DNA of 64,000 bases from Clostridia bacterium (lineage in GTDB: Bacteria > Bacillota > Clostridia > UBA1381), in NCBI GenBank assembly GCA_045538755.1, contig JAZQEC010000002.1:117740-181739 (forward strand), written 5' to 3'. A program made the translations under genes and the position numbers. The notes beneath the pieces are model-generated. The model did no database searches and was not told where the DNA came from. It saw only the letters and a program-made list of their open reading frames with translations. Below, in pieces: positions 8,134-29,485 of the stretch (within the stretch, counting starts at the first letter, position 1; the number at the start of each line of letters is the position of its first letter).

Positions 8134-8534
8134 TACATCCGCAATCATAATCGCATAGATTGAGTTTGATTTTTGTGGTAAGGTAGTTACACCACCCTGA
8201 AAAGTTAATCTCTCGAACCGAAAAGATAAGCCCTATGTTAAGCCCTTAAAATCGATTTGAAAGAACAAACGAAGGTGCGAGAAATCACCTGACGGGGCGC
8301 CCCGAAACGGCGAGGTGTGGTGTTTTAAAAGAAGCAGGATAAAGCTTGGTGCGCTATTCGCCCCAAGCAGGCTTACATCGCCGTGCAAAGCCCGGCGGAG
8401 AGGTTCCCAAAGTGCATCTGCTGGTGATGGTTTGGTGCTGTAATGCGGATTTTCCGCACGGTTGAGCCTTGAAATTGGTGCATATACAGGTATTAATGGT
8501 ATTTAACGATATTTTGAGAAAGGTGAGTGTTATA

Positions 8535-10040: not shown

Positions 10041-10128
10041 AATCAGGTTGCACATATTTTATGTAAATAATTGAATTTTGTCGCAATATGTGTTAAAATG
10101 TAATCAAGAAGTTATCGGAGGTTTTATT

Positions 10129-11024: not shown

Positions 11025-12572
11025 ATGAGTGCAAATATAACTTTGGGGAAATCAAATTCCACTGTAATTAAAGGGTTTTTAAAAAAGGATGATGCAGAAT
11101 ACCCATTTTTATATACTAATGGAAAATTGGATGTATTTCCTCCTGACTCAAAATCGAAGACATCATTACAATCAGGTTTTTTTGAAGAAATTAATAAACC
11201 TTTCCAAAAGGGAAAAGTTATTCCTCAACTATTTATTGAAGGAGTTACATCTACAGGCCAGAAAATTATATTTGAAACATCAGAACATCATTCTAATAAT
11301 AATGGTTTTTTAACTTATAATATTGATTCAATATACTGCTATGATAAAACCAGTACAAAATACAAACCCAATAATACAGATGATAAAACAAGTATTTCAA
11401 AGCCTGAAGATATAAAATCAGATGCAGATAAAATTGTAAAAAGAATACATAATTGGGATATAGTAACTAATGAAATTGATGGAATGGTTATTTCGGGAGA
11501 ATCTATAGATTTATTTTTCAATCCAGGTTATGCTTTTCAACTTAATAACACATGGAATGAAAATGGTTCATTGGGAGCGTTGTCTATATCTGCTTTACCA
11601 CCTACTGAATATGATTGTGGCTCAATAGAATATGACGGAATAACACTTAATGTAAAGGTAAAAGCTGTTGCTACACAACATACATTTTCTGCGGAACCTT
11701 TTTCTAGTAAAAGTAGTATGATAATAAATTTTTCAAAACCAGTAAGTATTGCAATGGTAAAAGAAGTTAGATTGTCCATAGAACATGTATTGTCATTTCT
11801 CCAAAAAAGACAAAATATCGAATTAAATGAGACGGAGATCTTTTGCACAAATTGTGGATACAAAAGAATTTTCGGATCATTTGTTATTCAAAAAAATGCA
11901 ACTATCCAAGAAATTGATAATAAAAAGAAAAAAAGATTGATTGATTATACCATTATCAAAGATTGTTTTTCCAATCTAGTCTTATTGAGTTTGCAAAACA
12001 AATTGTATTACGAAAACATCCCGAAATGTACTGCTGACTGGAATGTTTACGGACCAGATAGAATCATTTTTAATTTTGCCGCTTTTGATCGTATTAGCGA
12101 ATTATATTATTCTGAGACGATGCGTTCTCAGGATTTTTATGATGTGAGATCTTTATTCTTTGAAATATCAAAAGAACTTCAAATAAAATTTGGAGGCAAA
12201 AAGAAAAAAGCAGCTAAAGAGATAGGAAAACGGATATTGGGATTGGAGAGTAGTTTACAAGATAGATTTGTTAAAATAATTAAAGAACACATTGGTTGTA
12301 TAGATGTGTTTATGGAACTAAACTATGGTAAAACATGGCGTACAAAAATACCATCGATTGGCTCCAGATTGAATACTATTCGCAATGATATTGCACATGG
12401 TCATATGGATTTGCATTACGATGATAATACGATATTAGATTTTGAAACTCTAGAGATATTATTATATGCAATTTGGTTAAGAAAGGCTGATCTTTGCGAT
12501 TATAACATAAAAATTGCAATTGAACAATTGTTTCATTTAGGGGTGCTTATAGAAGACAAAAACAACGAATAA
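11025..12572 (+). CDS. HEPN-motif protein, ApeA-like single-protein defence candidate
   Basis: C-terminal R-x4-H motif in SRLNTIRNDIAHGH. Large N-terminal domain of unknown function. Starts 17 nt after the Bro-N gene. Confidence 0.5.
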   Translation: MSANITLGKSNSTVIKGFLKKDDAEYPFLYTNGKLDVFPPDSKSKTSLQSGFFEEINKPFQKGKVIPQLFIEGVTSTGQKIIFETSEHHSNNNGFLTYNIDSIYCYDKTSTKYKPNNTDDKTSISKPEDIKSDADKIVKRIHNWDIVTNEIDGMVISGESIDLFFNPGYAFQLNNTWNENGSLGALSISALPPTEYDCGSIEYDGITLNVKVKAVATQHTFSAEPFSSKSSMIINFSKPVSIAMVKEVRLSIEHVLSFLQKRQNIELNETEIFCTNCGYKRIFGSFVIQKNATIQEIDNKKKKRLIDYTIIKDCFSNLVLLSLQNKLYYENIPKCTADWNVYGPDRIIFNFAAFDRISELYYSETMRSQDFYDVRSLFFEISKELQIKFGGKKKKAAKEIGKRILGLESSLQDRFVKIIKEHIGCIDVFMELNYGKTWRTKIPSIGSRLNTIRNDIAHGHMDLHYDDNTILDFETLEILLYAIWLRKADLCDYNIKIAIEQLFHLGVLIEDKNNE

Positions 12573-12902: not shown

Positions 12903-13748
12903 ATGAATGAAATTACTAAACGCACTATTGAAGACTACAAGAATTATTTAATCGAGGAAGAAAAAAGTTCCGTCACCATAGAAAAATATATTCGTGACAT
13001 AAATGCATTCGTGCAGTGGTCGGACGGCAGAGCAATGACAAAGATACTTGTGCTTGAATACAAAAACATATTAGTACAGCAATATGCTCCTGCAAGTGTG
13101 AATTCGGTTTTATCTTCTCTCAACGGATACTTTAATTACATTGAAAGATACGATCTGAGGGTCAAGAACTTAAAAGTGCAAAGACAAATCTTCTGTCAGA
13201 GTGAAAAGGAACTGACCAAAGCAGAATACGAAAGACTTCTCAAAGCTGCAAAGAATAAAAAGAATGAGCGCCTCTACCTCATTATGCAAACGATATGTGC
13301 CACAGGAATCCGTGTGAGTGAACTGAAATACATCGATGTAAATTCTGTTATGACAGGTCAGGCTCAGGTTAGGTTGAAAGGCAAAATTCGAATAATAATA
13401 CTTCCAAAGGAACTGTGCCAACTACTGAAAAAATATATAAAGGAAAGGCATATCACATCAGGCAGTGTATTCGTAACGAGAAAAGGTCAACCTGTGGACA
13501 GGCACTCAATATGGAAATCGATGAAACAGTTGTGCGAGACCGCCGGAGTGTCAAAAGAAAAAGTGTTCCCACATAACCTCCGCCACCTGTTCGCACGAAC
13601 CTACTATTCGCTACAAAAAGATATCGTTCGCCTGGCGGATATACTTGGTCACTCAAGCGTAAATACTACCAGAATCTATACCATAGAAAATGGTTCTACC
13701 CACCGCAGGCAAATGCAAAGAATGGGACTTGTACGGATGCAAAATTAA
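12903..13748 (+). CDS. Tyrosine site-specific recombinase (XerC/XerD-like)
   Basis: ATGIRVSEL (Arg), HNLRHLFARTY (H-x-x-R) and LGHSSVNTTRIYT (His and Tyr) catalytic motifs; N-terminal SAM-like domain. Confidence 0.85.
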   Translation: MNEITKRTIEDYKNYLIEEEKSSVTIEKYIRDINAFVQWSDGRAMTKILVLEYKNILVQQYAPASVNSVLSSLNGYFNYIERYDLRVKNLKVQRQIFCQSEKELTKAEYERLLKAAKNKKNERLYLIMQTICATGIRVSELKYIDVNSVMTGQAQVRLKGKIRIIILPKELCQLLKKYIKERHITSGSVFVTRKGQPVDRHSIWKSMKQLCETAGVSKEKVFPHNLRHLFARTYYSLQKDIVRLADILGHSSVNTTRIYTIENGSTHRRQMQRMGLVRMQN

Positions 13749-14003: not shown

Positions 14004-14027
14004 AGCTAATGGGAGTTGAGTAGAAAT

Positions 14028-14549
14028 ATGCCCGACATAGATAAAGAAAAATCTTGCTGCTTCTTCGGTCACAGAAAGATTACTGAAACAGAAGAATTAA
14101 AAAATAACCTATGCAGAATTATAGAAAATTTAATTGTAAATGAAAAAGTTGATACCTTCCTATTCGGGAGCAAAAGCGAATTTGACAGTTTGTGCCTTAA
14201 AACAGTAACCGAGTTGCGAGAAAAATATCCTCGCATCAAGCGGATATACGTCAGGTCAGCATTTCAACATATTCCCGACTGGTATGAGGATAGTCTGCTT
14301 AAACATTATGAAGGTACATACTTCCCTGAACATATGGAAAACGCAGGCAGAGCATCTTATGTGGAACGCAATCAGGAAATGATTAACCACAGTAAATTCT
14401 GCGTGGTTTATTACGATGAAAACTATCTTCCTCCAAGACGTAGAAACAGCAGACGGGATTTGTTTGACTACCAACCCAGAAGTGGCACAAAGCTTGCTTA
14501 TGAATATGCTGAAAGAAAAAACAGAAGTATTATTAATCTTTTGAGTTGA
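14028..14549 (+). CDS. SLOG-superfamily protein (DUF1273/YpsA-like)
   Basis: N-terminal CCFFGHRKI motif, then an alternating beta/alpha pattern and about 175 aa, typical of DUF1273. Confidence 0.5.
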   Translation: MPDIDKEKSCCFFGHRKITETEELKNNLCRIIENLIVNEKVDTFLFGSKSEFDSLCLKTVTELREKYPRIKRIYVRSAFQHIPDWYEDSLLKHYEGTYFPEHMENAGRASYVERNQEMINHSKFCVVYYDENYLPPRRRNSRRDLFDYQPRSGTKLAYEYAERKNRSIINLLS

Positions 14550-14668: not shown

Positions 14669-14723
14669 AATGTAAATTATGAATTCATTTAGTTGGTTAC
14701 TCTACGAAAAGAGGTTTGTAATA

Positions 14724-15269
14724 ATGGAAGAGATATCAAGATTTTTTCTAACTGAAGAAGAAAAGAATGAATTTATCGAAGCATTGACACCGGAATTAGC
14801 ACTGCTCCGGGCAAAAGCAGAAATATCACAAGAAGAAATAGCAAATTTAATAGGAGTTTCAAGACAAACGTATGGTTCGATAGAGAGAAAGGCGAGAAAA
14901 ATGTCATGGAATACTTACCTATCTCTTATTCTTTTTTATGATTATAATAAAAAAACGCACAAGATGATTCGAAACATCTCAGCTTTTCCGCATGAGTTAA
15001 TTAAACGTTTTAACGAAGGTGAAGAACCGGTTGACTTTGAGTTAAACATGTTATTTAAGGCGGATACAAAGAACATTATTGATTCGTTAGATGAACAGGC
15101 TATCTCCACACTAAAGACCATTTTAATGGTAGAATATTCTCGTTGTAATAATATTTCTGGTGAAGCGGTTGTTAAGTTCTTTGAGGGTGTTGATTTTACA
15201 AAGAGAGAAATTTCAGAAAAACAAGAAGATACAGCACAAGCATTAAAGAACATTAAAAGGAACAATTAG
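14724..15269 (+). CDS. XRE-family HTH transcriptional regulator
   Basis: ISQEEIANLIGVSRQTYGSIERKARKMSWNTYLSL HTH_3-type motif; AGAGG RBS before the ATG at 14724. Confidence 0.75.
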   Translation: MEEISRFFLTEEEKNEFIEALTPELALLRAKAEISQEEIANLIGVSRQTYGSIERKARKMSWNTYLSLILFYDYNKKTHKMIRNISAFPHELIKRFNEGEEPVDFELNMLFKADTKNIIDSLDEQAISTLKTILMVEYSRCNNISGEAVVKFFEGVDFTKREISEKQEDTAQALKNIKRNN

Positions 15270-15272
15270 AAT

Positions 15273-15950
15273 ATGAGCAAAGCTATTAAGAAAATTACAA
15301 ACCAATTTATAAAACAACATTCAATATCAGTTGTAAATTATTCTACTTTAAGAGACGTGGCAAAAAGAATTGGTTATACAATTATAGAATTCAATAACAT
15401 TTTTAATGATAAAGATGTTGAAACGGTTATACAGAATTTACGACTCAGTGAAGCGGTGTCTCAATCAAGAGGATTTACATATGTAAGTAAAGATTATCGC
15501 CTTATTTTTATAAATGAGGATTTAAGCGATGATGAAAAGACTTTGGTTCTCTCGCATGAACTTGGGCATATTGTTTGCGAACATTTTACAACCACTCCTA
15601 TCATAGGCAAGGATGTCAAAGAGGAATATGAAGCAAATGAATTTTCTCATTATTTATTAAATCAAAACTCTTTGCGTAATTTAAAACTTACGATTACAAA
15701 ACATAAAAAGAAAGTAGCAGTAGTTGCACTGTCTTTTGTTGCCATATTGGTTACGATTGTCACTGTTATCACTATTAATCAAGAACAATCGTATTACGAC
15801 AATTGTTATATCACATCGACAGGAAATAAATACCATAAAAAAGATTGTATTTTTGTCAAGGATAAAACAACTGTAAAACGGTTGACTAAAGAAGAATATG
15901 ATGCCGGCAAATATGAAGCGTGCGACATGTGCTTGCCTGACAAAGAATAA
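15273..15950 (+). CDS. ImmA/IrrE-family zinc metallopeptidase with a TM helix and a C-terminal His/Cys cluster
   Basis: HELGHIVCEH HEXXH motif. TM helix VAVVALSFVAILVTIVTVITI. C-terminal YHKKDC...CDMC. Starts 4 nt after the XRE stop, the classic ImmR/ImmA pairing. Confidence 0.7.
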   Translation: MSKAIKKITNQFIKQHSISVVNYSTLRDVAKRIGYTIIEFNNIFNDKDVETVIQNLRLSEAVSQSRGFTYVSKDYRLIFINEDLSDDEKTLVLSHELGHIVCEHFTTTPIIGKDVKEEYEANEFSHYLLNQNSLRNLKLTITKHKKKVAVVALSFVAILVTIVTVITINQEQSYYDNCYITSTGNKYHKKDCIFVKDKTTVKRLTKEEYDAGKYEACDMCLPDKE

Positions 15951-15982
15951 ACATCTGCATTATGAGGAGAAAGGAAATTATT

Positions 15983-16852
15983 ATGGATAACGAAAAGAAA
16001 GTTATGTCTGCAACAGAAAACATAGAAAGCTCGGAGAATGTAGTTTTAGAAACACCAAATGCAACAGAAGAATCATGTTCCGTTGAATCAAATAGTGAAG
16101 AAAGAAGATGCCCAAACTGTGAAGCACTGATTATTGAAGAGAAATCTTTCTGCACGGAATGTGGTACTTCACTAAAAAGTGCCTGCGCAAAGTGTGGTAC
16201 AGAGTTGCAACCTGGACAACTTTTCTGTCCAGAATGCGGTAACCAAATAACTGAAAGCAACTGCGATGGGAATATAGCACAATATAATAAAGAAATTGCT
16301 GATAAGCAGAGAAAGAAAGGTAAACACAAAAAACTTAAAATCGTTCTAAGTGTAATTTTAGCAGTTTTGGTCGTAGTCGGTGGTTATTTTGGTTATATCT
16401 ATCATTTGAGACAACAAGTTTTAGGATATGCAATAGAAACAGAAAAATATATTGAAGCTATAAATGATACCAAAAGCGATCTCTCGGCTGCTAACGAAGC
16501 CTGGAATATAGTAAACAACGGTGGTTCTTGGCTTTACTATGGAACATTAAAATCTTATGCTAGATCGATGTTTTCAACTAACATTTCAAATGCAAAAACT
16601 GCAAATTCAAAAATAGTAGACCTCTATAATGATATAAAAGAATTTGAAATGGATGATTCATATGTTGATGATATAAAAGCAAAAGCACAAGAAGTGCAAG
16701 ATGTTTATTTGAGCGTGTATGATTCTGTAATTGTCAACGAAAGCGGCTATAGCAGTTCGAGTCTTTCAAATTTATCTACTAAGATTTCAGAACTCCAAAA
16801 AATTGTAGAAAATGTTAAAGATGCGTATGGTAACGCAAATGTGAAAAAATAA
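15983..16852 (+). CDS. Double zinc-ribbon / single-pass TM protein with helical extracytoplasmic domain
   Basis: CPNC-x10-FCTECG and CAKCG-x9-FCPECG, Lys-rich stop-transfer KQRKKGKHKK, TM helix IVLSVILAVLVVVGGYFGYIY. Confidence 0.6.
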   Translation: MDNEKKVMSATENIESSENVVLETPNATEESCSVESNSEERRCPNCEALIIEEKSFCTECGTSLKSACAKCGTELQPGQLFCPECGNQITESNCDGNIAQYNKEIADKQRKKGKHKKLKIVLSVILAVLVVVGGYFGYIYHLRQQVLGYAIETEKYIEAINDTKSDLSAANEAWNIVNNGGSWLYYGTLKSYARSMFSTNISNAKTANSKIVDLYNDIKEFEMDDSYVDDIKAKAQEVQDVYLSVYDSVIVNESGYSSSSLSNLSTKISELQKIVENVKDAYGNANVKK

Positions 16853-16887
16853 ACCGCATAGCGGTATATAGAAAGGAACTTTATATT

Positions 16888-17574
16888 ATGGAAAACGAAA
16901 ACAAAGTTATGCAGGAAGCAACAGTAACCGAAGCGGTTGAAAACGAAGCAAAGCAGCCTACAACAGAAAACAGATGCCCAAATTGTCAGGCTCTGCTTGG
17001 TGAAGGTCAAACCTTCTGTCCCGAGTGTGGAACTCCGCTTAAAAAACTTTGTCAGAAATGTGGTGCAGAACTGCAGAATGGACAGGTGTTTTGCGCAAAG
17101 TGTGGTCAAAAGACGGATGGAACCGTTGTGTTGGATGCTAGCCAAGCCATCAATCAGTTTAATACAAATATGGTAGCTCAACAAAAGAAAAACAAACTTA
17201 TTCCAGTTATTATTGGCGGAGTTTGCGTAGCTATTGCCATTCTACTTTTTGCTAGCGGAACAATCGGCGGTGGAGTGAATTTTGAAAAGAAATTTGCAGA
17301 TATAGCAGATGAATCATGGTGTGACATAGCATCTGATGGAAGTTATATGAAGTTAGATACAAATCCATATGATATTGAGGATAGCTTTGAAAGAGATGCA
17401 TGGAATGCAATTGAAGATACCAATGCAGAATTAGGCTTTTCAGAAGCGTTATTTAGTAAAATGGGTGAAACGCGGTCTATGGATGGAAGACAGTCAGACG
17501 AAAACGATAAATATAAAGTGACTTGGACATATCACCCGGATAAAGGTCTTGAAGTTATGTATGAGAAGAAATAA
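16888..17574 (+). CDS. Double zinc-ribbon / single-pass TM protein (paralog of the previous gene in its N-terminal module)
   Basis: CPNC-x10-FCPECG and CQKCG-x9-FCAKCG; TM helix LIPVIIGGVCVAIAILLFA. The N-terminus MENENKVMQ parallels MDNEKKVMS. Confidence 0.6.
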   Translation: MENENKVMQEATVTEAVENEAKQPTTENRCPNCQALLGEGQTFCPECGTPLKKLCQKCGAELQNGQVFCAKCGQKTDGTVVLDASQAINQFNTNMVAQQKKNKLIPVIIGGVCVAIAILLFASGTIGGGVNFEKKFADIADESWCDIASDGSYMKLDTNPYDIEDSFERDAWNAIEDTNAELGFSEALFSKMGETRSMDGRQSDENDKYKVTWTYHPDKGLEVMYEKK

Positions 17575-17608
17575 ATAACAACAAAAAATTTGACAAGGAG
17601 AATATATC

Positions 17609-18214
17609 ATGGGAAAATTAAATGTAATTATTGTTGACGCAACAGGAAACAAGGAGCAAAAGGTTGGATTACCTGATGATGTAAAAATCGGTATCATTAT
17701 GGTTAAGCTTGTTGAAAAAATCAAATTGCCTTCAACAGGTCCTGATGGTAATCCTATCAGCTATAAATTCATACATAAAGTTTCCGGAAGACAGCTTTTG
17801 GAAACACAGACTTTAGCAGATGCTCATATCAAAGATGGAGATGTATTAAGGCTTCAACCCGAAATTACTGCAGGCGCAGTTTGCACAAAGTGCGGTAAAA
17901 CTATGCAAGATGGAGTTGCTTTTTGCACAGATTGCGGACAGCCGATGAATATTGTACAGCAACCAAATTTTGTTCAACCCAATTATGGAGTATATCAGGT
18001 TAACACAATCAACAAATCTACCCCTGTTAAGGTGTTGGGAATTATTTCGTCGGTAATACATTTTTTGGCGACATTTATATTTTTAATGGTAGCTTTCGAT
18101 TGTTATGATTTTGAATATGCAGCACCATATCTTATGTTTGCGTTTTTCTTTTGTGCCCAGGGGTTTTTAACTTTAGCAATGACTATTTATATGTCAAACA
18201 GAATTAAAAAGTAA
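17609..18214 (+). CDS. Ubiquitin-like beta-grasp domain fused to a zinc ribbon and two TM helices (tethered Ubl precursor)
   Basis: Residues 1-89 have a beta-grasp-like pattern ending GDVLRLQPEITAG (compare ubiquitin LVLRLRGG). Then CTKCG-x9-FCTDCG and two hydrophobic helices. Confidence 0.6.
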   Translation: MGKLNVIIVDATGNKEQKVGLPDDVKIGIIMVKLVEKIKLPSTGPDGNPISYKFIHKVSGRQLLETQTLADAHIKDGDVLRLQPEITAGAVCTKCGKTMQDGVAFCTDCGQPMNIVQQPNFVQPNYGVYQVNTINKSTPVKVLGIISSVIHFLATFIFLMVAFDCYDFEYAAPYLMFAFFFCAQGFLTLAMTIYMSNRIKK

Positions 18215-18224
18215 GGTGAATATT

Positions 18225-19412
18225 ATGTCGACGGAATTAGAATTAAATAAAGAGGATTTTGAAGAAACCAGATATTCACGATTAGAACTTATTCCCTGGT
18301 GGAATCAAGAACTTCTACACAATTCAACAGTAATGGTTGTAGGTGCCGGTGCCATCGGCAATGAACTTATCAAAAACCTTGCCTTGCTTGGTGTGGGCAA
18401 AATCGTTATTGTTGATATGGATAAGATTGAGCAAACAAACCTTACTCGTTCTATTCTTTATAGAATGAAAGATGTTGGCAAATATAAATCCCAGGCCGCA
18501 GCAGAAGCTGCTATGGAGATTAATCCTGATGTTAAAGCAATATGCCTCAATCAGAATATTGTTACAGATATTGGTCTTGGTGTATTTCGCAGTATGGATA
18601 TTGTTCTCGGTGGTCTTGATAACCGTGAAGCAAGACTTGCAATTAACCAGTCATGTTATAAGGTAAACAAGCCCTGGATTGATGGTGCTATTGAGGTTTT
18701 AAACGGTTTTGCTAGAGTGTTTGTTCCGCCCGGTCCGTGTTATGAATGCACAATGACCGAAACAGACTGGAAACTCATCAATAAACGTAAATCCTGTGCA
18801 CTTTTAACGCATGATGAGATGTTAGAAGGCAAAACGCCTACTACACCTACTTCATCATCAATTATTGCAGGTGTTCAGGTTCAAGAAATGCTGAAGATTT
18901 TGCACAATGACAGAAATCTTCCTACGCTTGCCGGCAAAGGGTATGTGTTCAATGGACTTACCCATGATTCTTTTGTCGTAGAGTACCAGCTTAAAGATGA
19001 TTGTATGAGCCATGATTTGTATGACAATATAAGGGAAATGGATTGGTCTGCTCGTGAAGTGTCTGTAAAAGATGTTTTAAATCAGGCAGCAAAAGACCTT
19101 GGTGATGGTGCAATCATTGAATTTGATCGTGATATTGCTACAACTGCAACCTGTGTTTGTGGAGATACAAAAGACATTTTCAATACTGTGAACCGTCTTC
19201 GTGGCAAAGATATTGTTTGCGAAAAATGTGGTAAATCTATGCAATTTGAAACTATACACACAATTAATGGTGAAGAAGATTTTCTTGATAAAAAATTATA
19301 TGAAATCGGTATACCTTTGTATCATATCATTGCAGTGAGGAAAGGTATGAAATATGTTTATTATGAATTATCAAAAGATAAAAACGAAGTGTTAGGAGGT
19401 CTGTTTGAATGA
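18225..19412 (+). CDS. E1-like adenylating enzyme (ThiF/MoeB/UBA family)
   Basis: VMVVGAGAIGNE Gly-loop, DxD at IVDMDKIEQTNLTRS, GGLDNREAR, and two Cys pairs (CYEC, and CVCG...CEKCG). Its stop overlaps the E2 start (ATGA). Confidence 0.8.
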   Translation: MSTELELNKEDFEETRYSRLELIPWWNQELLHNSTVMVVGAGAIGNELIKNLALLGVGKIVIVDMDKIEQTNLTRSILYRMKDVGKYKSQAAAEAAMEINPDVKAICLNQNIVTDIGLGVFRSMDIVLGGLDNREARLAINQSCYKVNKPWIDGAIEVLNGFARVFVPPGPCYECTMTETDWKLINKRKSCALLTHDEMLEGKTPTTPTSSSIIAGVQVQEMLKILHNDRNLPTLAGKGYVFNGLTHDSFVVEYQLKDDCMSHDLYDNIREMDWSAREVSVKDVLNQAAKDLGDGAIIEFDRDIATTATCVCGDTKDIFNTVNRLRGKDIVCEKCGKSMQFETIHTINGEEDFLDKKLYEIGIPLYHIIAVRKGMKYVYYELSKDKNEVLGGLFE

Positions 19413-21334
19413 ATGCAAGAATGAGGAGAATTGCCTCCGACTATGAACAGATTAAGAAGAATTTTTCGAATCATAAGAATATTGTAGTAGAACCAATTGG
19501 TGAAGAACCTGCCGAAAAGTACAGAGTTACATATTATGTAAATGGTATATACCTTTTAGAAGACGGCAGGATCGAAACTCTTGGTAAACACATCGTAATT
19601 ATTACATTACATGCTGAATATCCGAGATATAAGCCGATATGTACTATTGCTACACCTATCTGGCATCCTAATTTTAGAGATGGACAGATTTGTATAGGTG
19701 ATATCTGGGGAGCTGGAGAATCACTCTGCGATATTATTGTAAACATCGGTGATATGATTCAATATAAATCCTGGAACTCCTTTAGTCCTCTTTCTGCTGA
19801 TGCTGCCGAGTGGGCTATTGCAAACAAACACCTATTCCCTGTTGGTAATGTTAATTTGTGGACCGGCGAGGAAGAAGACGGCACAGTAAAAAAAGAGTTT
19901 GATATTGATCTTTTTGATGAAGATGAAGAAACATCATCAACTGAAACTATTCCGGAAGTGGTAGAATCCGCTCCTGTACAGGAAGAAATGCCGGTTGTTT
20001 CAGCAGAAACAACTGTTGAACAAGTTCCTGTAGCTACTGCTATATTGGAAAATGAAGATGAGAATGACTTTGAAATTACTGCTGAAGAATTAGAAGGAAT
20101 TGAATTTGTTCCGACTGCAGTAAGAATGCAAGGCAGCCAATATGGAGCAACTGCAAAAGGTGGCAAAGTTAACTTTAAAACTGTATTAGTCAAAGGCTTA
20201 TTATGGGCTTTAATAGGCGCATTTATTGGCTTTGGTGTTTCAGAAGTTTCTGATGGTTTAACTGGTAATGCCTCCGTTGCAAGAATGTTAGGACATCCTG
20301 AAATTGCTGAATATTATGAATATACAGAGCAAGCAAATGATGTTTTAGCCCCTGTAGATGCAGCATTTGAAAAATACTGCAAAGAACAAGGAATAGATCC
20401 TGAATCAGAAAACGCTTTAACAAATTGGTTGACGAACAATACTTCTAAGTATTCAAGTACTGTCGAAAAATATTTGGAATACAATGAAAAAGCCGAAAAT
20501 GCATTGTATGAAGCCTATGAAAATGATTTTAATTCTAACGAAGACAAACTTGGCGAAGCGATGGAAGGAATATCAAGAACTCATACTGCATTGTGGTCCG
20601 CATTAATCGCTTTATTCATCGGTCTTTTCCTTGGTCTTGGAGAAGGCATATACTATGGTTCAAAGGAAAATGCAATTAAATATGCTTTAATTGGTGCCGG
20701 TATATCAATAGTTGTTGGTGCTGTAAGCGGATATCTTGCACAGTGGATGTATGCTTCGATGTTGACCGATTATTCGTCTGACTTTACCAAAGCTCTCGTA
20801 AGAGGTTTGGGTTGGGCAATAATGGGTATTGGTATAGGCTTATCCGTAGGTCTTATCAAATCTGAACAAAAGAGAATAATTTTCTGTTCTCTCGGTGGTG
20901 TTATTGGTGCATTTATAGGAGGATTCCTATTTAACTATGTATGTGATATCATTCCAAATGACATTGTTGCACGCGGATTTGCAATAGTTATTATGGGCCT
21001 TTTGATCGGTGTTGGCGTAGGTGTACTTGAACAGTTTGCAAAAGCTGCTTGGCTCAAAGTTATAAGAGGTGAATTTGAAGGTAAAGAATATCTTGTATTT
21101 GAAGGTACAACAAGTATTGGTAATAGTGGAAAGAACACTATTGTATTGTTCAAAGATAAACTTGTTGCACCAAATCATTGCGATATTGTTCAAGAAGGTA
21201 GCAAATATGTCCTGGTAGATAAAGGCTCACCAATGGGTACTGTTGTTAATGGTATGCGTGTGACTCGCCATGTTTTAAAACAGGGTGATGCAGTTGCTAT
21301 CGGTAACTCTGTACTAGTATTTAACACGAAATAA
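19409..21334 (+). CDS. UBC-type E2 fused to about six Gly-rich TM helices and a C-terminal FHA domain
   Basis: YPRYKPICTIATPIWHPNFRDGQICIGDIW (H86-P87-N88, Cys95). Hydrophobic GxxxG-rich segments between about residues 258 and 545. C-terminal IGNSGKNTIVL...VVNGMRV...GDAVAIGNSVLVF is FHA-like. Confidence 0.75.
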   Translation: MNARMRRIASDYEQIKKNFSNHKNIVVEPIGEEPAEKYRVTYYVNGIYLLEDGRIETLGKHIVIITLHAEYPRYKPICTIATPIWHPNFRDGQICIGDIWGAGESLCDIIVNIGDMIQYKSWNSFSPLSADAAEWAIANKHLFPVGNVNLWTGEEEDGTVKKEFDIDLFDEDEETSSTETIPEVVESAPVQEEMPVVSAETTVEQVPVATAILENEDENDFEITAEELEGIEFVPTAVRMQGSQYGATAKGGKVNFKTVLVKGLLWALIGAFIGFGVSEVSDGLTGNASVARMLGHPEIAEYYEYTEQANDVLAPVDAAFEKYCKEQGIDPESENALTNWLTNNTSKYSSTVEKYLEYNEKAENALYEAYENDFNSNEDKLGEAMEGISRTHTALWSALIALFIGLFLGLGEGIYYGSKENAIKYALIGAGISIVVGAVSGYLAQWMYASMLTDYSSDFTKALVRGLGWAIMGIGIGLSVGLIKSEQKRIIFCSLGGVIGAFIGGFLFNYVCDIIPNDIVARGFAIVIMGLLIGVGVGVLEQFAKAAWLKVIRGEFEGKEYLVFEGTTSIGNSGKNTIVLFKDKLVAPNHCDIVQEGSKYVLVDKGSPMGTVVNGMRVTRHVLKQGDAVAIGNSVLVFNTK

Positions 21335-21345
21335 TATAGAAGGAG

Positions 21346-22200
21346 ATGAGTGGTATGAAATATAGAATTATCAGCATAGCGATTGTGTTCATACTGCTTA
21401 TCTCTTTTTCTGCATATGCAATTAACTTTACACCTGAAGAGACATATAATTCGGTGGTTGTTGTATATACAGATACAGGGGTTGGCAGTGGTTTTTCTAT
21501 TAAAGAAAATATAATAATAACAAACGCACATGTTGTGGGATACAGTAAAAAAGTTGCAGTTAATTTATACGATGGAACGACAATTAAAGGCAACGTTATA
21601 AAAACTGATATTGAAAAAGATTTGGCGTTGATTGAGGTTGATAAAACAATTACACCATTAAGTATAAATTCAAACAATTTAAGTATAGGTCAGGAAGTAT
21701 ATGCAATAGGCGCACCAAAAGATATGCCTTACACCATGACCAAAGGAATCATATCAGCACTTGACAGAAAACTTGGACAAAACACCTACATACAAATAGA
21801 TGCATCTGTAAATTCCGGAAACAGTGGCGGTCCGCTTGTTGATGACAATGGAAATGTGATTGGAATCATTACTCTAAAAGCATCTGATGCGGAAGGAATT
21901 GGCTTTGCAATTAACACAAAAGATATCAATAATTTTATTGAAGGTGTAGAAGTCCCTGAGCAACAAGTTTCTTCTGAAACCGAAAATGGAGAAAAAGATA
22001 TATTGCCAAACGAAAATAATGCTGAAACAAATGAAATGCAAAAGACTCTTATGGCAGAAAACGATGGATTAAAAATAGCACTGTGTATGTCTGTTATTTT
22101 TAATATTATATTAGGATTGTTATACCTTCACATATTGTTTAAAAAACGTTCCAAGAAAGAAAAAGACGAGTTTGATTTTGAAATTGAAATTGAGGAGTAG
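21346..22200 (+). CDS. Trypsin-like (S1/HtrA-type) serine protease, exported, with C-terminal TM anchor
   Basis: Signal-like MKYRIISIAIVFILLISFSAYA. Triad motifs TNAHVV, DLALIEV and GNSGGPLV. C-terminal helix LKIALCMSVIFNIILGLLYLHILF. The start may be the ATG at 21355. Confidence 0.8.
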   Translation: MSGMKYRIISIAIVFILLISFSAYAINFTPEETYNSVVVVYTDTGVGSGFSIKENIIITNAHVVGYSKKVAVNLYDGTTIKGNVIKTDIEKDLALIEVDKTITPLSINSNNLSIGQEVYAIGAPKDMPYTMTKGIISALDRKLGQNTYIQIDASVNSGNSGGPLVDDNGNVIGIITLKASDAEGIGFAINTKDINNFIEGVEVPEQQVSSETENGEKDILPNENNAETNEMQKTLMAENDGLKIALCMSVIFNIILGLLYLHILFKKRSKKEKDEFDFEIEIEE

Positions 22201-22205
22201 CGATT

Positions 22206-23177
22206 ATGAAGAAGAAAAAAACTAAGGCAAGGGTTTCTCATAAAAATATTACACCCGATTTGCCACAAAATATAGTTCCTGTAGGAGAAAGAGTTTTTGA
22301 TGATAAAAACATTTATATTCATCAAAAAGTTTATGCACAAATACATAAATTTGCTGCCAATAAAACAGAAAATGAGCATGGTGGAATCTTGGTTGGCAGA
22401 ATTCTAAATGAAATGGGTAAAGAAAATACAATTATAGAAGGCTTTATTGAAGCGAAATACAATGCAGCTACGCCTACTACTTTAACATTCACCCACGAAA
22501 CATGGGATTATTTCCATTCTGAAATGGATAGAAAGTATAAGGATAAAAAAATTGTGGGATGGATTCATACTCATCCTAATTTTGGAATATTCTTGTCTGA
22601 AAATGACCGATTTATACAACAAAATTTCTTCACTGATGCTAATCAGGTAGCCTATGTAGTCGATCCAATTCAAAATGATGAAGGCTTCTTCTTTTGGGTG
22701 AATGAAAAATTAGAACGTTGCCCTGGTTTTTACTTGTTTGATAAAAACGGAGTTAAAATAAAACAAAAGGCATGGTCAACTGATCCGGATGAACTTAATG
22801 AAGATGTAATTGTAAAACATAGTAAGATACATCCTATTCTTACAATTGCACTTGTTCTTGTTATACTTGTAAATCTTTTTGTGATAATGCAACAATCTAG
22901 GAGAATAGACACGCTTGAAAGGCAGGTTGAGGATCAGGAATTGGTACTTCGGTATGGTGTTCTTGGCATTTATGGTAATCCTGAAATATCGGATGTTGCT
23001 GATAATATAAGACAGCAAATAGAAGCACAGGAAAAATCTAAAAAACAAGCGATTCAGGATGCTATGAAACAACAAAAAGAACAACAAGCGACAGAGGCGA
23101 ACGAACAAGAACAAAAAGAAGAAAAAAATACTGAAGAAAATGAAACAAACACAGAGAATAACGGAGGTACAGAATAA
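22206..23177 (+). CDS. JAB/MPN (JAMM) metallopeptidase with TM helix and E/Q/K-rich tail
   Basis: ENEHGGILVG (Glu) and HTHPNFGIFLSEND (H-x-H-x7-S-x2-D); TM helix IHPILTIALVLVILVNLFVIM. Confidence 0.8.
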   Translation: MKKKKTKARVSHKNITPDLPQNIVPVGERVFDDKNIYIHQKVYAQIHKFAANKTENEHGGILVGRILNEMGKENTIIEGFIEAKYNAATPTTLTFTHETWDYFHSEMDRKYKDKKIVGWIHTHPNFGIFLSENDRFIQQNFFTDANQVAYVVDPIQNDEGFFFWVNEKLERCPGFYLFDKNGVKIKQKAWSTDPDELNEDVIVKHSKIHPILTIALVLVILVNLFVIMQQSRRIDTLERQVEDQELVLRYGVLGIYGNPEISDVADNIRQQIEAQEKSKKQAIQDAMKQQKEQQATEANEQEQKEEKNTEENETNTENNGGTE

Positions 23178-24022
23178 TGGATTTTATAGGTAAAATTTGT
23201 CCCTATTGCAAAACTGAATTTAAAGAAGGCGATGATGTCGTTGTATGTAGCGTTTGCGAAATGCCACATCACAAAGAATGTTGGATAGAAAATAAAGCAT
23301 GTACTACATTTGGATGCACAGGCACAATTGTTGGTGCAGAGCAATATGCAGAAGCTGTAGATAATAAGACATTCTGTTCTAAATGTGGAGCGCCTTTAAG
23401 TGAAGGGCAAAAATTCTGTGCTTCATGCGGAACACCAGCAGGAGCAACAGGTGAACCACATTTTCAGGTTGCTGGAGCATATGCGGCAAACCAAAGTTAT
23501 CAGCAAAATACATATACTGCGCCTCAGCCACAGTACACACCTCAATATTCTGCTCCGCAGTATAATGCTGGTTATAATCCTTATGGTCAACAACAGGTCG
23601 ATCAGGATTTATATACATTTATACAGTCTAATCAGCCATTCTATATATCAAAGTTCCAAAAAATGCAGATGAGTAACAGTAAAACATCATGGAATTGGTG
23701 TAGCTTTTTATTCAGTGCATATTGGTTGGCATATAGAAAAATGTATGGTATAGCAGCGGCATATGCCGGAATCTCCTTCGTATTAGGGTTGATTCCTGGT
23801 CTTGGTTCTATTTTAGGATTAGCAATGTCTATCTGTGCTGGTATATTTGGAAATCATTTTTATAAACAATATATAGACGGAGAATTACAGGTAGCTAAGA
23901 GTATGGATGCGATGAATAAAACCGCCTATATAGCCAAGAAAGGTGGAACAAGCGCAGGTGCAGTTTGGGTTGTTATAGGAATAATGACTGTTCTTGGAAT
24001 GATAATAGGCAGTAGCATGTAA
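23177..24022 (+). CDS. Prok-RING-like C4HC3 finger + zinc ribbon + Q/Y/P-rich linker + DUF2628-like TM domain (E3 candidate)
   Basis: C8-x2-C11-x12-C24-x2-C27-x4-H32-x2-C35-x6-C42-x4-C47 in ICPYCKTEFKEGDDVVVCSVCEMPHHKECWIENKACTTFGC. Then FCSKCG-x9-FCASCG, and WNWCSFLFSAYWLAYRKMY. Confidence 0.6.
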   Translation: MDFIGKICPYCKTEFKEGDDVVVCSVCEMPHHKECWIENKACTTFGCTGTIVGAEQYAEAVDNKTFCSKCGAPLSEGQKFCASCGTPAGATGEPHFQVAGAYAANQSYQQNTYTAPQPQYTPQYSAPQYNAGYNPYGQQQVDQDLYTFIQSNQPFYISKFQKMQMSNSKTSWNWCSFLFSAYWLAYRKMYGIAAAYAGISFVLGLIPGLGSILGLAMSICAGIFGNHFYKQYIDGELQVAKSMDAMNKTAYIAKKGGTSAGAVWVVIGIMTVLGMIIGSSM

Positions 24023-24033
24023 GGAGGCTTATT

Positions 24034-24996
24034 ATGGATGATACAAATATTGAAATTTTAGAAACCGAAAGTGTTGTTATCGAAAGTTCAGTAGTTGCAT
24101 TACCTATGAATTTTGTGTCTGTAGGAACTGTGGAACACGATAGTGTTCAGGTTTATATCAAACAAGATGTTTATAAACGAATAGAGAAATTCGCTAAAGA
24201 AGAAATGTCAAAAGAAGTTGGAAGTATTTTAATTGGCGACTATGTGGATGAAAAAGACAGAAAAACTATAATAATTTCAAATTACATTGAAGCAAAATAT
24301 ACCGATGCTTCTGCCTCTACTCTTACCTTTACACATGAAACATGGGATTATGTATATAGAGAAAAGGATAAAAAATATCCGGACAAAAAAATAGTTGGCT
24401 GGCAACACACTCACCCGGGATATGGAATTTTCCTATCAAATTATGATATTTTCATACAGGAAAATTTCTTTAACCTTCCTTGGCAGATTGCATATGTTGT
24501 AGATCCTATTGCAGATACAAGAGGATTTTTTGAGTGGAAAAATGATAAAGTTGCCAAAATGTCAGGCTTTTATGTTTATGATGAAATTGGCAGAGAAATA
24601 AAAATTTCAGAAAAAGCCAAGCCTGTTAAAAAACATTTTTCCATTACAACTATTATTTTGTCGTTCTTGCTACTTGTTTCGCTATTGGTTTCAGTTTCGT
24701 TTGGGATTGAGAAAAACAATGTTATGGATAGGCTCAACGAAGCACTTGCAACGATAAGCCAGCAATCCAACATTCAAATGGATGAAACACCAACGGTAGT
24801 AGAACAAGAACTGCCCGAAGATGTTGAAGCATTTAAGGTGTATGTAGTACAGGAAGGTGATTATCTAGAAAGTATATGCGAGCAATATGGTTTAGATTAC
24901 ATGAGCAATATACAGAAGATAATGAGAATCAATAGCATAACAGATGTAAATAAAATCTATGTAGGTCAAAAATTGTACTTGCCTATAAACGAATAA
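24034..24996 (+). CDS. JAB/MPN (JAMM) metallopeptidase with TM helix and C-terminal LysM
   Basis: SKEVGSILIG and HTHPGYGIFLSNYD JAMM motif. TM helix ITTIILSFLLLVSLLVSVSFGI. LysM: YVVQEGDYLESICEQYG...INSITDVNKIYVGQKLYLP. Confidence 0.8.
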   Translation: MDDTNIEILETESVVIESSVVALPMNFVSVGTVEHDSVQVYIKQDVYKRIEKFAKEEMSKEVGSILIGDYVDEKDRKTIIISNYIEAKYTDASASTLTFTHETWDYVYREKDKKYPDKKIVGWQHTHPGYGIFLSNYDIFIQENFFNLPWQIAYVVDPIADTRGFFEWKNDKVAKMSGFYVYDEIGREIKISEKAKPVKKHFSITTIILSFLLLVSLLVSVSFGIEKNNVMDRLNEALATISQQSNIQMDETPTVVEQELPEDVEAFKVYVVQEGDYLESICEQYGLDYMSNIQKIMRINSITDVNKIYVGQKLYLPINE

Positions 24997-25008
24997 AGAG
25001 GTGTTTTT

Positions 25009-26283
25009 ATGATAATATGCTCTCGTTGTAAAACAGAAAATGAAGACGATGTGAAATTTTGTAGAGAATGCGGAAACGATTTGATAACAAATGTTGATGC
25101 ACCGGCGAATGAGGATCTAAAAAGCTTGGCAGACTCATTAAATGAACAAGCAGTACATACAGAAAAACAACCATTTAATCTTAATAAAGCTATTTCTGAA
25201 GTGCCAAAAAAACTTTGGAGCGGAATAAAGAAATCTATATTTTTTAGAAAAAAGAAAAATACAATTATCACCTGTTCTTCTCTAGTAGTCATGATATTGT
25301 TGATAATTGGAGTTTTAAATAGCGGTTATATTGCGTTTACCATGGCATACAACATGGGTAAATACGATGCAGCAAAAAATATTCAAGGATGGTCGTTTAA
25401 TAGTAATGGTGTGAAATCTAATATAGAGAAATTTGTCATAAATAAAACTGAATCTTACTATGCTGATTTCTCTTCCGAGAAGATAACGTATGAGGAAGCT
25501 AATGAAAAGTTTGATATTGCGGAGGATTTCAGCAGCAACAAGGATGCAAAAAATAAGGCTGATAAATTACAAACTTCAAGAACATCTTATACAAAAGCAG
25601 AAGAATACGAGAAGAACGGCGATACCTTTAGTGCTGTATTGGAATATCTTAAAGTAATCGAAGAAGATAAAAACTATAATACAGCAAAAGAAAAAATAGA
25701 AAAGAATAAGCCAACTGTAAAACAACAAGCTATTTCACAAATGGATAACTGTGTTGCAGTAAATGATTTTAATACTGGTTTAAAAATTGTATCCGATATG
25801 GAAAAGATATTCTCTAACGATGCTGATATTAATAATTATAAAAAGGATTTTGAAGCACGTAAAGAAGCACATAGAATTCAGGAATTAAAAGATAATCAAA
25901 AAGTCAAAGTTACAAGCGTAAGATCATTTAACGATGGTTATTATATTGTTTTTAGAAAAGCCCAAGCAATATTGAAAAATTGCAGCAATAATGTTTTAAA
26001 AGAAGCAACAATTGTGTTCTTGTTGTTCGATAGTAACGGATATCCTGTAGATGCAGATTATTCGATGTACTCAGAAAGTGGAGTAGACAATAGTGAACGA
26101 TGTGGTACGGGAAGCATGAATCTACAACCTGGTGAATCTTGGGGGTACGGCAAGGCGATGGATATTCCGGATAATGCAACGCAAGTTAAAGCCTGTGTAA
26201 AATCTGCTGAATTTTATGATGGCGGTACATGGACGAATCCGTATTACGAACATTGGCTTAAAACTGAAAAAGACAGATATTAA
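25009..26283 (+). CDS. Zinc-ribbon / single-pass TM protein with large extracytoplasmic domain
   Basis: CSRCK-x9-FCRECG at the N-terminus, FFRKKKNT stop-transfer, TM helix SSLVVMILLIIGVLNSGYIAF, about 320-aa external region. Confidence 0.6.
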   Translation: MIICSRCKTENEDDVKFCRECGNDLITNVDAPANEDLKSLADSLNEQAVHTEKQPFNLNKAISEVPKKLWSGIKKSIFFRKKKNTIITCSSLVVMILLIIGVLNSGYIAFTMAYNMGKYDAAKNIQGWSFNSNGVKSNIEKFVINKTESYYADFSSEKITYEEANEKFDIAEDFSSNKDAKNKADKLQTSRTSYTKAEEYEKNGDTFSAVLEYLKVIEEDKNYNTAKEKIEKNKPTVKQQAISQMDNCVAVNDFNTGLKIVSDMEKIFSNDADINNYKKDFEARKEAHRIQELKDNQKVKVTSVRSFNDGYYIVFRKAQAILKNCSNNVLKEATIVFLLFDSNGYPVDADYSMYSESGVDNSERCGTGSMNLQPGESWGYGKAMDIPDNATQVKACVKSAEFYDGGTWTNPYYEHWLKTEKDRY

Positions 26284-27128: not shown

Positions 27129-27836
27129 TTAGATGGATTCAAGAAAGTTTTGGAACTTGTCTGGTGAAATTTCAGCTTTTTTATATTTCATACGATATTC
27201 CATAAGCATTTTGAGTTTAATGTGCAGTTCATTTTTTTGTTTTTCATCAGCACACTTCTTATGCTTGTAGTAGGTTGCCTGATATACTTTATCATATAAT
27301 AAAAGAAGATTGTCTGCTTGTTTGGTTTCTTTTGAGCGCTTCTTTGCTCCGTACTGCCTGCAGGCTTCGTTATCGCAATATTCCATAGTAGGATTATCCG
27401 CAAGGAAGAATTTTGAGCAACTTCCGCATTTTACGATAGGCATATTATTTGTCAGGGCATACATCATTTCCAAACGAAGAAAATCAAAAAAATCACTCAA
27501 ATAATACATATCAATGAATTGTATTGTTCCATCGTCATCGATGTTGCCTATGGTCTTAGTTACAGAGAATTTTGTTTTGCTTAATTTAAATTCCTCATCG
27601 CACAATAAATAACCCTCTATCCTTTTCTTCTTATCCTTGCTTGAAAAACAACGCTCAAGCATTTTAGTTGCTTCATCCTTTACTTTTTTCATATCAAGAT
27701 CTGGAAAGATTGTTTTTAGGTGTGTAGGAGCATCATTGGAAAGAACGCAAGCCGCTCCACCAATTGGTACAACATACGAGCCTTTTTCTGTAATGATTTT
27801 TTCTTCTCCATGACCAAATATAACTTCAAAATTCAT
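27129..27836 (-). CDS. Hypothetical protein with a Cys cluster (CGSC...CDNEAC)
   Basis: 235-aa ORF on the opposite strand with a hairpin terminator at 27084-27120; no enzymatic motif recognised. Confidence 0.5.
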   Translation of the reverse strand: MNFEVIFGHGEEKIITEKGSYVVPIGGAACVLSNDAPTHLKTIFPDLDMKKVKDEATKMLERCFSSKDKKKRIEGYLLCDEEFKLSKTKFSVTKTIGNIDDDGTIQFIDMYYLSDFFDFLRLEMMYALTNNMPIVKCGSCSKFFLADNPTMEYCDNEACRQYGAKKRSKETKQADNLLLLYDKVYQATYYKHKKCADEKQKNELHIKLKMLMEYRMKYKKAEISPDKFQNFLESI

Positions 27837-28413: not shown

Positions 28414-29213
28414 GTGAGAGGATTTGCATATGGTCGTCTATCAAGAGACGAAGACAGCGAACAGGAATCCCTGAAAAATCAGGAAGATTTGGTCGTTGGA
28501 TTTATGAAGAAAGGGAACCATATAGTTATCGAAATAGGAATGGATGATAACTATACAGGAATGGATTTTGACAGACCGGGAATTAAGCGAATGTTTGAAC
28601 TGGCAAGAAACGGCGAGATTGATGCAGTATTCGTGAAAGACTTAACTGCACATCTCATAGAATTCGAGAGGAAATGCTTGACAAGATAGTACAAGCCGAG
28701 CTTGAAGGAATACGATTAGTATTCGATGACCTATGGGAGAATGTAGAGGCTGATGTCAAGAAATGGGCAGCAGGAAAATCTACAACAGAGAAAAGGCTCG
28801 AAAATCTTAAGCAAAGCATTTCGGATACAGAGCTTGAAATCCAGAAAATCCTTATGGAAAGGATTGAGGATAAACAGAATGCTGATATGTATGACAAGAT
28901 GATTGAGACAAGGCGAAATGACATTGAGAACTTTAAAAAGGAAGTTTATGAGATAGAAAACCTTGATAAAACAATCAAGGATAGAAAATCTACTCTCAAA
29001 CATTCCATAGAGTTACTCGATGATATCATAGCCGAAAACAACATCAGTAATGCAAACCTGCACCTGATGTTTGACAAAATCATCATTGAAGAAACGGGCG
29101 AAGGATTAAATCTTGACCTGAGATTAAAATCCCCGTTTATCAGCAAAGCAAAAGAGTCATTACTCAAGAAATATATGATAGTAGATAACCAAGTTTTACA
29201 GGAAGGAGCGTGA
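28414..29213 (+). pseudogene. Large serine recombinase remnant (internal deletion plus frame change)
   Basis: The N-terminal 77 aa look like a resolvase domain (FAYGRLSRDEDS nucleophile Ser; IDAVFVKDL), then read out of frame to a stop. ORF 28674-29213 in another frame is the coiled-coil C-terminal part. The recombinase and zinc-ribbon domains are missing. Confidence 0.65.
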
Positions 29214-29400: not shown

Positions 29401-29485
29401 TGGTGCGGCTGAAGGGACTTGAACCCCCACGTCATTGACACTAGATCCTAAGTCTAGCGCGTCTGCCAATTCCGCCACAGCCGCA
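29401..29485 (-). tRNA. tRNA-Leu (anticodon UAG), CCA encoded, carried inside the island
   Basis: The reverse complement folds as a class II tRNA. Acceptor GCGGCTG/CAGCCGC, D arm GGCGGAATTGGCAGACGC, anticodon stem-loop CTAGA-CTTAGGA-TCTAG, long variable arm, T arm GGGGG-TTCAAGT-CCCTT, then ACCA. Confidence 0.9.

Follow-up and report, generated by a model that had tools for sequence, protein, structure and literature searches.

A membrane-anchored Prok-RING_1 finger protein as the candidate E3 of a clostridial ubiquitin-like conjugation operon

We analyzed a gene at positions 23177 to 24022 of a 64,000-nucleotide stretch of DNA from a Clostridia bacterium of the UBA1381 lineage (contig JAZQEC010000002.1, hereafter the window). 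It encodes a 281-residue membrane protein whose N-terminal C4HC3 finger belongs to the Prok-RING_1 family, and it lies within an operon that also encodes a ubiquitin-like protein (Ubl), an activating enzyme (E1), a conjugating enzyme (E2), and two JAB-type peptidases. The gene product is probably, though by no means assuredly, the membrane-anchored RING-type component, either a ligase (E3) or an adaptor of the E2, of a membrane-embedded clostridial Ubl conjugation system. The original prediction, made from the letters of the window, had proposed a candidate membrane E3, and both the Prok-RING_1 match and the conserved Ubl/E1/E2/JAB operon support it as such; candidate is the right word because the basic linchpin residue that usually follows the last ligand of a RING finger is absent.

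The open reading frame (ORF) starts with an ATG, runs for 281 codons on the forward strand and has the following layout.

23177..24022, + strand: whole gene, 281-residue membrane protein composed of Prok-RING_1 finger, zinc ribbon, linker and DUF2628 module, with the stop codon at 24020-24022 (ORF list, Pfam)
23163..23167, + strand: Shine-Dalgarno-like GGAGG, 9 nt 5' of the ATG (read from the sequence)
23177..23329, + strand: N-terminal C4HC3 finger, residues 1-51 (Prok-RING_1 match, invariant columns, AlphaFold2 model, Foldseek neighbors)
23366..23437, + strand: separate single zinc ribbon, residues 64-87, C67-x2-C70-x10-C81-x2-C84 (Pfam, invariant Cys)
23447..23602, + strand: Q/Y/A/P-rich low-complexity linker, residues 91-142 (composition, model confidence, alignment)
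23603..24019, + strand: DUF2628-type membrane module, residues 143-281 (Pfam, model confidence, hydropathy, invariant residues)

The finger carries eight ligands in the translation, C8-x2-C11-x12-C24-x2-C27-x4-H32-x2-C35-x6-C42-x4-C47, with Trp36 directly after C35, exactly as had been proposed. A search against prokaryotic RING profiles, suggested beforehand as a check, returned Prok-RING_1 (PF14446) well over its cutoff: in the whole protein the hidden Markov model (HMM) matches residues 3–45 with an E-value of 2.5e-14 and 53.4 bits, against a gathering cutoff of 29.1, and the finger scanned alone scores 56.2 bits (E 3.2e-15). The same family is matched by all 31 of 31 homologous fingers, with a best E-value of 9.4e-17. 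The C4HC3 order and the lengthened last ligand pair, C42-x4-C47, are features of Prok-RING_1 that are present here, and a review describes both as features of prokaryotic RING domains (PMC11354881). The assignment of the finger to a prokaryotic RING type, as originally claimed, thus holds through the family match and the invariance of the ligands. The model for RING-CH/MARCH fingers, RINGv, is not among the nine Pfam families reported for the finger at E-values up to 10, and zf-RING_16 matches 15 of the 31 fingers below threshold. PADLOC and NCBIfam contain no model for the RING protein or its system. Sequence and profile searches of the finger against all PDB chains gave nothing significant, the best match being the Pygo2 PHD finger at an E-value of 0.06, so that no member of the family has a solved structure.

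Homologs of the full-length protein form 346 clusters at E ≤ 1e-3 among about 5.8 billion proteins, and nearly all share the same three-domain architecture. Those with names come from Clostridia, including Clostridium saccharoperbutylacetonicum, and several are called "RING finger protein" by NCBI. In an alignment of 40 homologs, reaching down to about 40% overall identity, the invariant residues of the finger are K6, C8, P9, C11, C24, C27, M29, P30, H31, H32, K33, C35, W36, N39, C42, T44, F45, G46, C47, and G49. Since the ligands and their flanking positions are alike invariant, the pattern is not a chance arrangement of cysteines. Position 10, between ligands 1 and 2, is always Tyr or Phe and hence hydrophobic, and Trp36 is likewise invariant; the two would fall, as far as the sequence allows them to be placed, roughly at the positions through which RING E3s contact their E2. 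Both members of the His doublet H31–H32 (window positions 23267-23272) are retained throughout, though one suffices as the fifth zinc ligand. When only the finger is used as a profile, 5,406 representative clusters are retrieved (E ≤ 1e-3) among 1.84 billion proteins, which makes the finger family a large one.

The AlphaFold2 model of residues 1–56, with a predicted local distance difference test score (pLDDT) of 80.9, contains a β-hairpin formed by strands 20–23 and 30–32, followed by a short helix (33–38). In this model C24 and C27 sit in the hairpin turn and H32 and C35 at the start of the helix, while C8 and C11 form the preceding knuckle and C42 and C47 the trailing pair. The modeled layout supports a treble-clef cross-brace, in which ligands 1, 2, 5, and 6 would hold one metal and ligands 3, 4, 7, and 8 the other, unlike two sequential ribbons. 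When the full-length and finger-only models were compared with the PDB by Foldseek, the best matches were almost all binuclear fingers of the PHD (MLL3 PHD6 and Pygo), ZZ (p62, HERC2, and BIG), and RING (RNF13, RNF24, EL5, Arkadia, and RING1B) types, with TM-scores of 0.55–0.65 and root-mean-square deviations of 2.2–3.0 Å over about 50 of the 56 residues. Their E-values are about 0.2–1, which is in keeping with the small size of the domain and makes the comparison support and not proof; the cross-brace fold class of the finger is to be taken as a supported prediction in the same sense. The opposite outcome, two independent ribbons, which had been named in advance as one that would overturn the reading, did not appear: the modeled layout is cross-brace-like, with Foldseek E-values in the range just given.

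The remainder of the protein also agrees with the original description, Pfam and composition bearing out its separate zinc ribbon, its low-complexity linker and its DUF2628-like transmembrane module. The zinc ribbon is matched above cutoff by Zn_ribbon_3 and Zn_Ribbon_1 on residues 66–87, and its four cysteines are invariant among the 40 homologs. The linker (residues 91–142) contains 11 Gln, 8 Tyr, 7 Ala, and 6 Pro and neither Lys nor Arg, differs freely in length among the aligned homologs and is predicted to be disordered. DUF2628 (PF10947) matches residues 158–206 with 29.9 bits against a cutoff of 23. The membrane module consists of an amphipathic helix, an aromatic WNWCSFLFSAYWLAYRKMY segment, a hydrophobic hairpin (residues 188–226), and a C-terminal transmembrane helix (residues 256–281); hydropathy marks the last two as hydrophobic segments and places WNWCSFLFSAYWLAYRKMY within the hydrophobic C-terminal third. 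Seven residues of the module, W172, N173, W174, W183, R187, K188, and M189, are invariant in the same alignment and define a WNW...W...RKM motif. In the AlphaFold2 model computed with the full alignment, the overall pLDDT is 78.9, with values of 81–92 for the finger, below 50 for residues 91–137 of the linker and above 90 for the helical membrane module.

The gene belongs to a tight set of co-directional genes that spans positions 14679–26283, and the ORF list and the Pfam scans confirm every neighbor on which the original prediction relied, from the Ubl, E1, and E2 genes to the two JAB genes. As had also been noted, the RING gene overlaps the JAB gene upstream: the final base of the JAB stop codon TAA (23175-23177) is also the first base of the ATG (23177-23179), which gives TAATG at 23175-23179. 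The other genes of the set are listed below.

14679-15269, + strand: helix-turn-helix (HTH) regulator (Pfam scans, ORF list)
15273-15950, + strand: M78/IrrE-like peptidase (Pfam scans, ORF list)
15962-16852, + strand: double zinc ribbon and transmembrane protein (Pfam scans, ORF list)
16888-17574, + strand: double zinc ribbon and transmembrane protein (Pfam scans, ORF list)
17609-18214, + strand: YukD-like Ubl (residues 1-89, ending LRLQPEITAG), zinc ribbon and transmembrane anchor (Pfam YukD, E 5.6e-12)
18216-19412, + strand: ThiF-type E1 (Pfam ThiF, E 7.5e-55)
19409-21334, + strand: UBC-type E2 (HPN 86-88, Cys95), multi-transmembrane region and C-terminal FHA domain (Pfam UQ_con, FHA)
21346-22200, + strand: trypsin-like serine protease with N-terminal signal or anchor and C-terminal transmembrane segment (Pfam Trypsin_2, E 1.3e-29)
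22206-23177, + strand: JAB/MPN peptidase with transmembrane segment and charged tail, its stop overlapping the start of the RING gene (Pfam JAB, Prok-JAB)
24034-24996, + strand: second JAB/MPN peptidase with transmembrane segment and LysM domain (Pfam JAB, LysM)
25009-26283, + strand: zinc ribbon, transmembrane segment and DUF5780 (Pfam scans, ORF list)

The terminal motif of the Ubl, LRLQPEITAG with Gly89 at its end, is strictly invariant across 57 loci, and what follows the Gly varies: the ORF ends there in 7 genomes, most others add 1–13 unconserved residues, and the Ubl of the window, like that of about 13 further loci, is fused to a zinc ribbon and a transmembrane anchor. Judged by its sequence, such an ending is the hallmark of a conjugated modifier whose C-terminal Gly would be exposed by a peptidase and then activated, and the window Ubl would be a membrane-tethered pro-Ubl that needs cleavage by a JAB peptidase. 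This processable Gly terminus is an argument for a functioning conjugation system, and hence for a ubiquitin-type role of the RING protein encoded with it. In the 641-residue E2, an acidic linker and a multi-transmembrane region lie between the UBC domain and the C-terminal FHA domain. Alignment of the UBC domain to eukaryotic E2 structures (2e2c, E 6.4e-6; also UBE2L3 and UBE2N) brings both the HPN motif and the catalytic Cys into register, and across 61 loci the UBC core hardly varies (YPRYKP, HPN at residues 86–88 and ICIGDIWGAGE with Cys95). The FHA domain hints at control by phospho-threonine.

When one genome per species was scanned, 76 loci came up. Almost all lie in Clostridia or other Bacillota (Oscillospiraceae, Acutalibacteraceae, Lachnospiraceae, Clostridium, and Massiliimalia), and the nearest of them is 96% identical. 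Neighbors were counted by tblastn of the window operon proteins against 79 loci (L001–L079), 58 of which had at least 6 kb 5' of the RING gene and 67 at least 1.5 kb 3' of it. Upstream and on the same strand, the E1 was found in 55 of 58 loci, the E2 in 54/58, the Ubl in 53/58, a JAB gene in 51/58, and the protease in 48/58; downstream, a JAB gene follows in 61 of 67. The gene order is identical in C. saccharoperbutylacetonicum and in metagenome contigs, and in about 20 loci the HTH/M78 pair, sometimes with an integrase, lies ahead of the operon. The Ubl/E1/E2/JAB context of the RING gene is thus strongly conserved.

These properties are those of Prok-RING_1, or prokaryotic RING finger family 1, in general. 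This family reportedly originates with Burroughs, Iyer and Aravind in 2011, who are said to have predicted that prokaryotic RING E3s act together with an E1, an E2, a JAB peptidase and a Ubl, and to have suggested YukD-like Ubls among the modifiers that these systems attach; citing papers likewise credit that 2011 work with the prediction of bacterial RING-type E3s. The bacterial versions of the finger are described as carrying transmembrane helices (PMC4029887). All the family traits that could be examined here, the HMM score, the ligand order with its long last pair, the transmembrane helices, and the Ubl/E1/E2/JAB neighborhood, were found in the window protein, and nothing essential sets it apart; its orthologous group adds the zinc ribbon, the Q/Y-rich linker and the DUF2628 module.

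The closest system with a demonstrated activity is the Ub/E1/E2/RING/Rpn11 operon of Candidatus Caldiarchaeum subterraneum, whose RING protein srfp is an E3 that depends on I30, W58 and the linchpin R69 (PMC5654768). Both operons place a prokaryotic RING beside a Ubl, an E1, a UBC-type E2 and a JAB/Rpn11-type peptidase, and the Ubl, which needs processing at its C terminus there, is predicted to need it here too. Each finger further has a hydrophobic residue between ligands 1 and 2 as well as a Trp close to its central helix, at positions that would roughly correspond (I30 and W58 in srfp, Y10 and W36 here). They differ in that srfp is a soluble RING-H2 protein (C3H2C3) with R69 as its linchpin, whereas the window protein is a C4HC3 integral membrane protein with Thr after the last ligand, and in the modifier, which is ubiquitin-like for srfp and YukD-like here.

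From these data we infer zinc binding, E2 contact, ligase stimulation, a target and a biological role for the RING protein, and the pathway could run as follows. A JAB peptidase would trim the YukD-like pro-Ubl after Gly89 of the LRLQPEITAG motif, which in the window would also free the Ubl from its zinc-ribbon and transmembrane anchor. The ThiF-type E1 would then adenylate the Ubl and hand it to Cys95 of the membrane-bound E2. The cytosolic C4HC3 finger may dock on the E2~Ubl thioester, with Y10 and W36 roughly at the positions used by RING E3s for E2 contact, and would promote or direct transfer of the Ubl onto a lysine in a target close to the membrane. The RING protein would be kept within the same membrane complex by its DUF2628 helices and perhaps by its zinc ribbon, and the JAB peptidases could later undo the mark.

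Several points weigh against a RING-type role for the protein. The linchpin Arg or Lys is missing, since C47 is followed by the conserved stretch T48-G49-T50, and srfp required its R69 linchpin, to which T48 is the equivalent position. By sequence, the second-closest family is PHD, with sub-threshold matches in all 31 of 31 fingers (best E 3.5e-5), and zf-RING_2 comes behind it, sub-threshold in 23 of 31. Structurally, no Foldseek match has an E-value below 0.19, and ZZ and PHD fingers match at least as well as RING fingers. Other bacterial membrane proteins (P0121, the four-finger P0122, and P0125) have two to four tandem copies of the finger followed by transmembrane helices, and arrays of this kind are unusual for E2-binding RINGs. 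A paper that cites Burroughs et al. 2011 reports that some prokaryotic RING fingers are unrelated to ubiquitin, and RING-containing bacterial operons have been described as uncharacterized (PMC10557695). The linchpin deserves a further remark. Some active RINGs lack the Arg or Lys at this position.

Most of these points can also be read in favor of a PHD/ZZ-like binding module, which is the strongest of the alternatives, possible but rather doubtful in our estimate. The finger would then bind a peptide, a protein N terminus or the Ubl itself, and the protein, as a scaffold or receptor, would draw a substrate or the (pro-)Ubl into the membrane complex, leaving transfer to the E2 without an E3. 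The PHD fingers and the N-terminal-peptide-binding ZZ domains of p62, HERC2, and BIG among the top structural neighbors, which score as well as RING fingers or better, the ubiquitous sub-threshold PHD matches, the lack of Arg or Lys after C47 and the tandem arrays are all consistent with such a module, as is the description of the characterized bacterial Bil and CBASS systems as a Ubl, an E1, an E2 and a deubiquitinase (DUB), with no E3 component named. It fits less well with the tight operon linkage of the gene to a canonical UBC E2 and with the invariance of Y/F10 and W36, roughly at the two positions that mediate E2 contact in RING E3s, and the Pfam PHD score of the window finger, 18.5 bits, falls short of the cutoff of 24. 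The resemblance extends to eukaryotic proteins. Like the membrane RING ligases of the PA-TM-RING (RNF13) and RING-CH/MARCH types and like PHD and ZZ domains, the window protein is predicted to have a small binuclear cross-brace finger, which in this membrane protein would face the cytosol, yet no sequence or Foldseek E-value for any of them is significant, RINGv goes undetected and PHD stays below threshold. Compared with the eukaryotic membrane RINGs, the finger here is also N-terminal to the membrane domain and has its last ligand pair spaced by x4.

It is improbable that the protein is instead an acceptor or a structural membrane subunit, in other words one of several zinc-ribbon and transmembrane proteins in the operon to which the Ubl becomes attached, and plays no part as a ligase. 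Five operon proteins (15962-16852, 16888-17574, 17609-18214, 23177-24022 and 25009-26283) share a cytosolic zinc-ribbon and transmembrane layout and differ in their outer domains, which would suit a set of acceptors, and the finger lysines K6 and K33 are invariant. RING proteins often modify themselves, which is in line with an acceptor role. Being an acceptor is, for its part, compatible with being an E3. The whole finger surface, beyond its lysines, is however near-invariant at about 40% identity, which suggests a conserved interaction partner, and Prok-RING_1 is by its description a family of RING fingers, which its founding work reportedly predicted to be E3s. Finally, two sequential independent zinc ribbons or knuckles with a superficial likeness to RING are very improbable: weak zinc-ribbon matches in Pfam on residues 2–12 and 6–29 and the non-significant Foldseek E-values speak for them, but the model has C24/C27 at the turn of the hairpin and H32/C35 where the helix begins, in the manner of treble-clef cross-braces, the top 50 structural matches are nearly all binuclear and mostly cross-brace (PHD, ZZ, RING) with about 50 of 56 residues covered, and the Prok-RING_1 HMM matches residues 3–45 as a single stretch with seven of the eight ligands (C8 to C42, C47 lying just beyond). 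We therefore retain the membrane-anchored RING-type component as the favored reading.

Two observations concern the operon as a whole. At locus L002, two proteins (2047-3369 and 3385-4404) have full Prok-RING_1 fingers where the upstream proteins of the window have their first zinc ribbon, so that some operons encode three RING proteins. The combination of YukD and FHA domains hinted at a link to type VII secretion, which we rejected, as neither an FtsK/EssC-type ATPase nor a WXG100 protein turned up when the operon proteins were scanned against Pfam.

The operon lies as cargo in a mobile element, which is marked by the flanking genes below.

8469-9656: MobL relaxase
10078-11007: Bro-N
11025-12572, + strand: 515-residue ORF between the Bro-N gene and the integrase, with no Pfam match at E ≤ 0.001
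12903-13748: tyrosine integrase
14016-14549: YspA SLOG
27129-27836, - strand: DUF6076
28414-28689: truncated resolvase, N-terminal fragment
29401-29484, - strand: tRNA-Leu

An ImmR/ImmA-like regulator pair, the HTH and M78/IrrE genes at 14679-15950, precedes the operon, and several operon proteins carry ectodomains (LysM, protease, and DUF5780). Because the operon is mobile-element cargo, a role in conflict, defense or envelope surveillance can reasonably be inferred. Searches of phage and plasmid collections returned remote relatives only, at 20–29% identity, with no sign of the gene being phage- or plasmid-borne.

Among characterized bacterial systems, Bil (BilABCD), type II CBASS with Cap2/Cap3, and Bub likewise combine an E1, an E2 and a JAB-type peptidase in one operon, with a Ubl in Bil and Bub, and often lie on mobile or defense islands. 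They are described without a named RING E3, whereas the operon here has a RING and all of its components are membrane-anchored; its E2 also carries an FHA domain, and a trypsin-like protease and a LysM domain are additional. The PADLOC models for Bil and type II CBASS left the RING, Ubl and E2 proteins unmatched and showed weak generic similarity for the E1 and JAB proteins.

The novelty implied by the original prediction was too high. It is low, because the family is catalogued, its role has been predicted in the literature and database annotation exists; NCBI already applies the corresponding names, and the sequence observation adds nothing beyond Pfam and NCBI annotation. No bacterial RING finger is so far known to act as an E3, and papers on bacterial ubiquitination from 2023–2024 continue to list RING-containing operons as uncharacterized (including PMC10557695). 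The operon described here, being compact, strongly conserved and wholly membrane-tethered and encoding a Ubl with a processable Gly terminus, is a reasonable system for asking whether bacteria transfer a Ubl with the help of a RING and which targets receive it. As a tentative extension, which we consider rather unlikely in its full form, the RING protein could be the ligase of a complete, all-membrane-anchored E1/E2/RING E3/DUB machine carried on mobile elements of gut Clostridia, which would activate a membrane-tethered pro-Ubl and tag envelope-proximal or invading proteins in response to outside signals sensed by the LysM, protease and DUF5780 ectodomains. If this were true, bacteria would have their first demonstrable integral-membrane RING E3 in this protein, which would then be a prokaryotic counterpart of the ligases of endoplasmic-reticulum-associated degradation (ERAD) and of the MARCH type.

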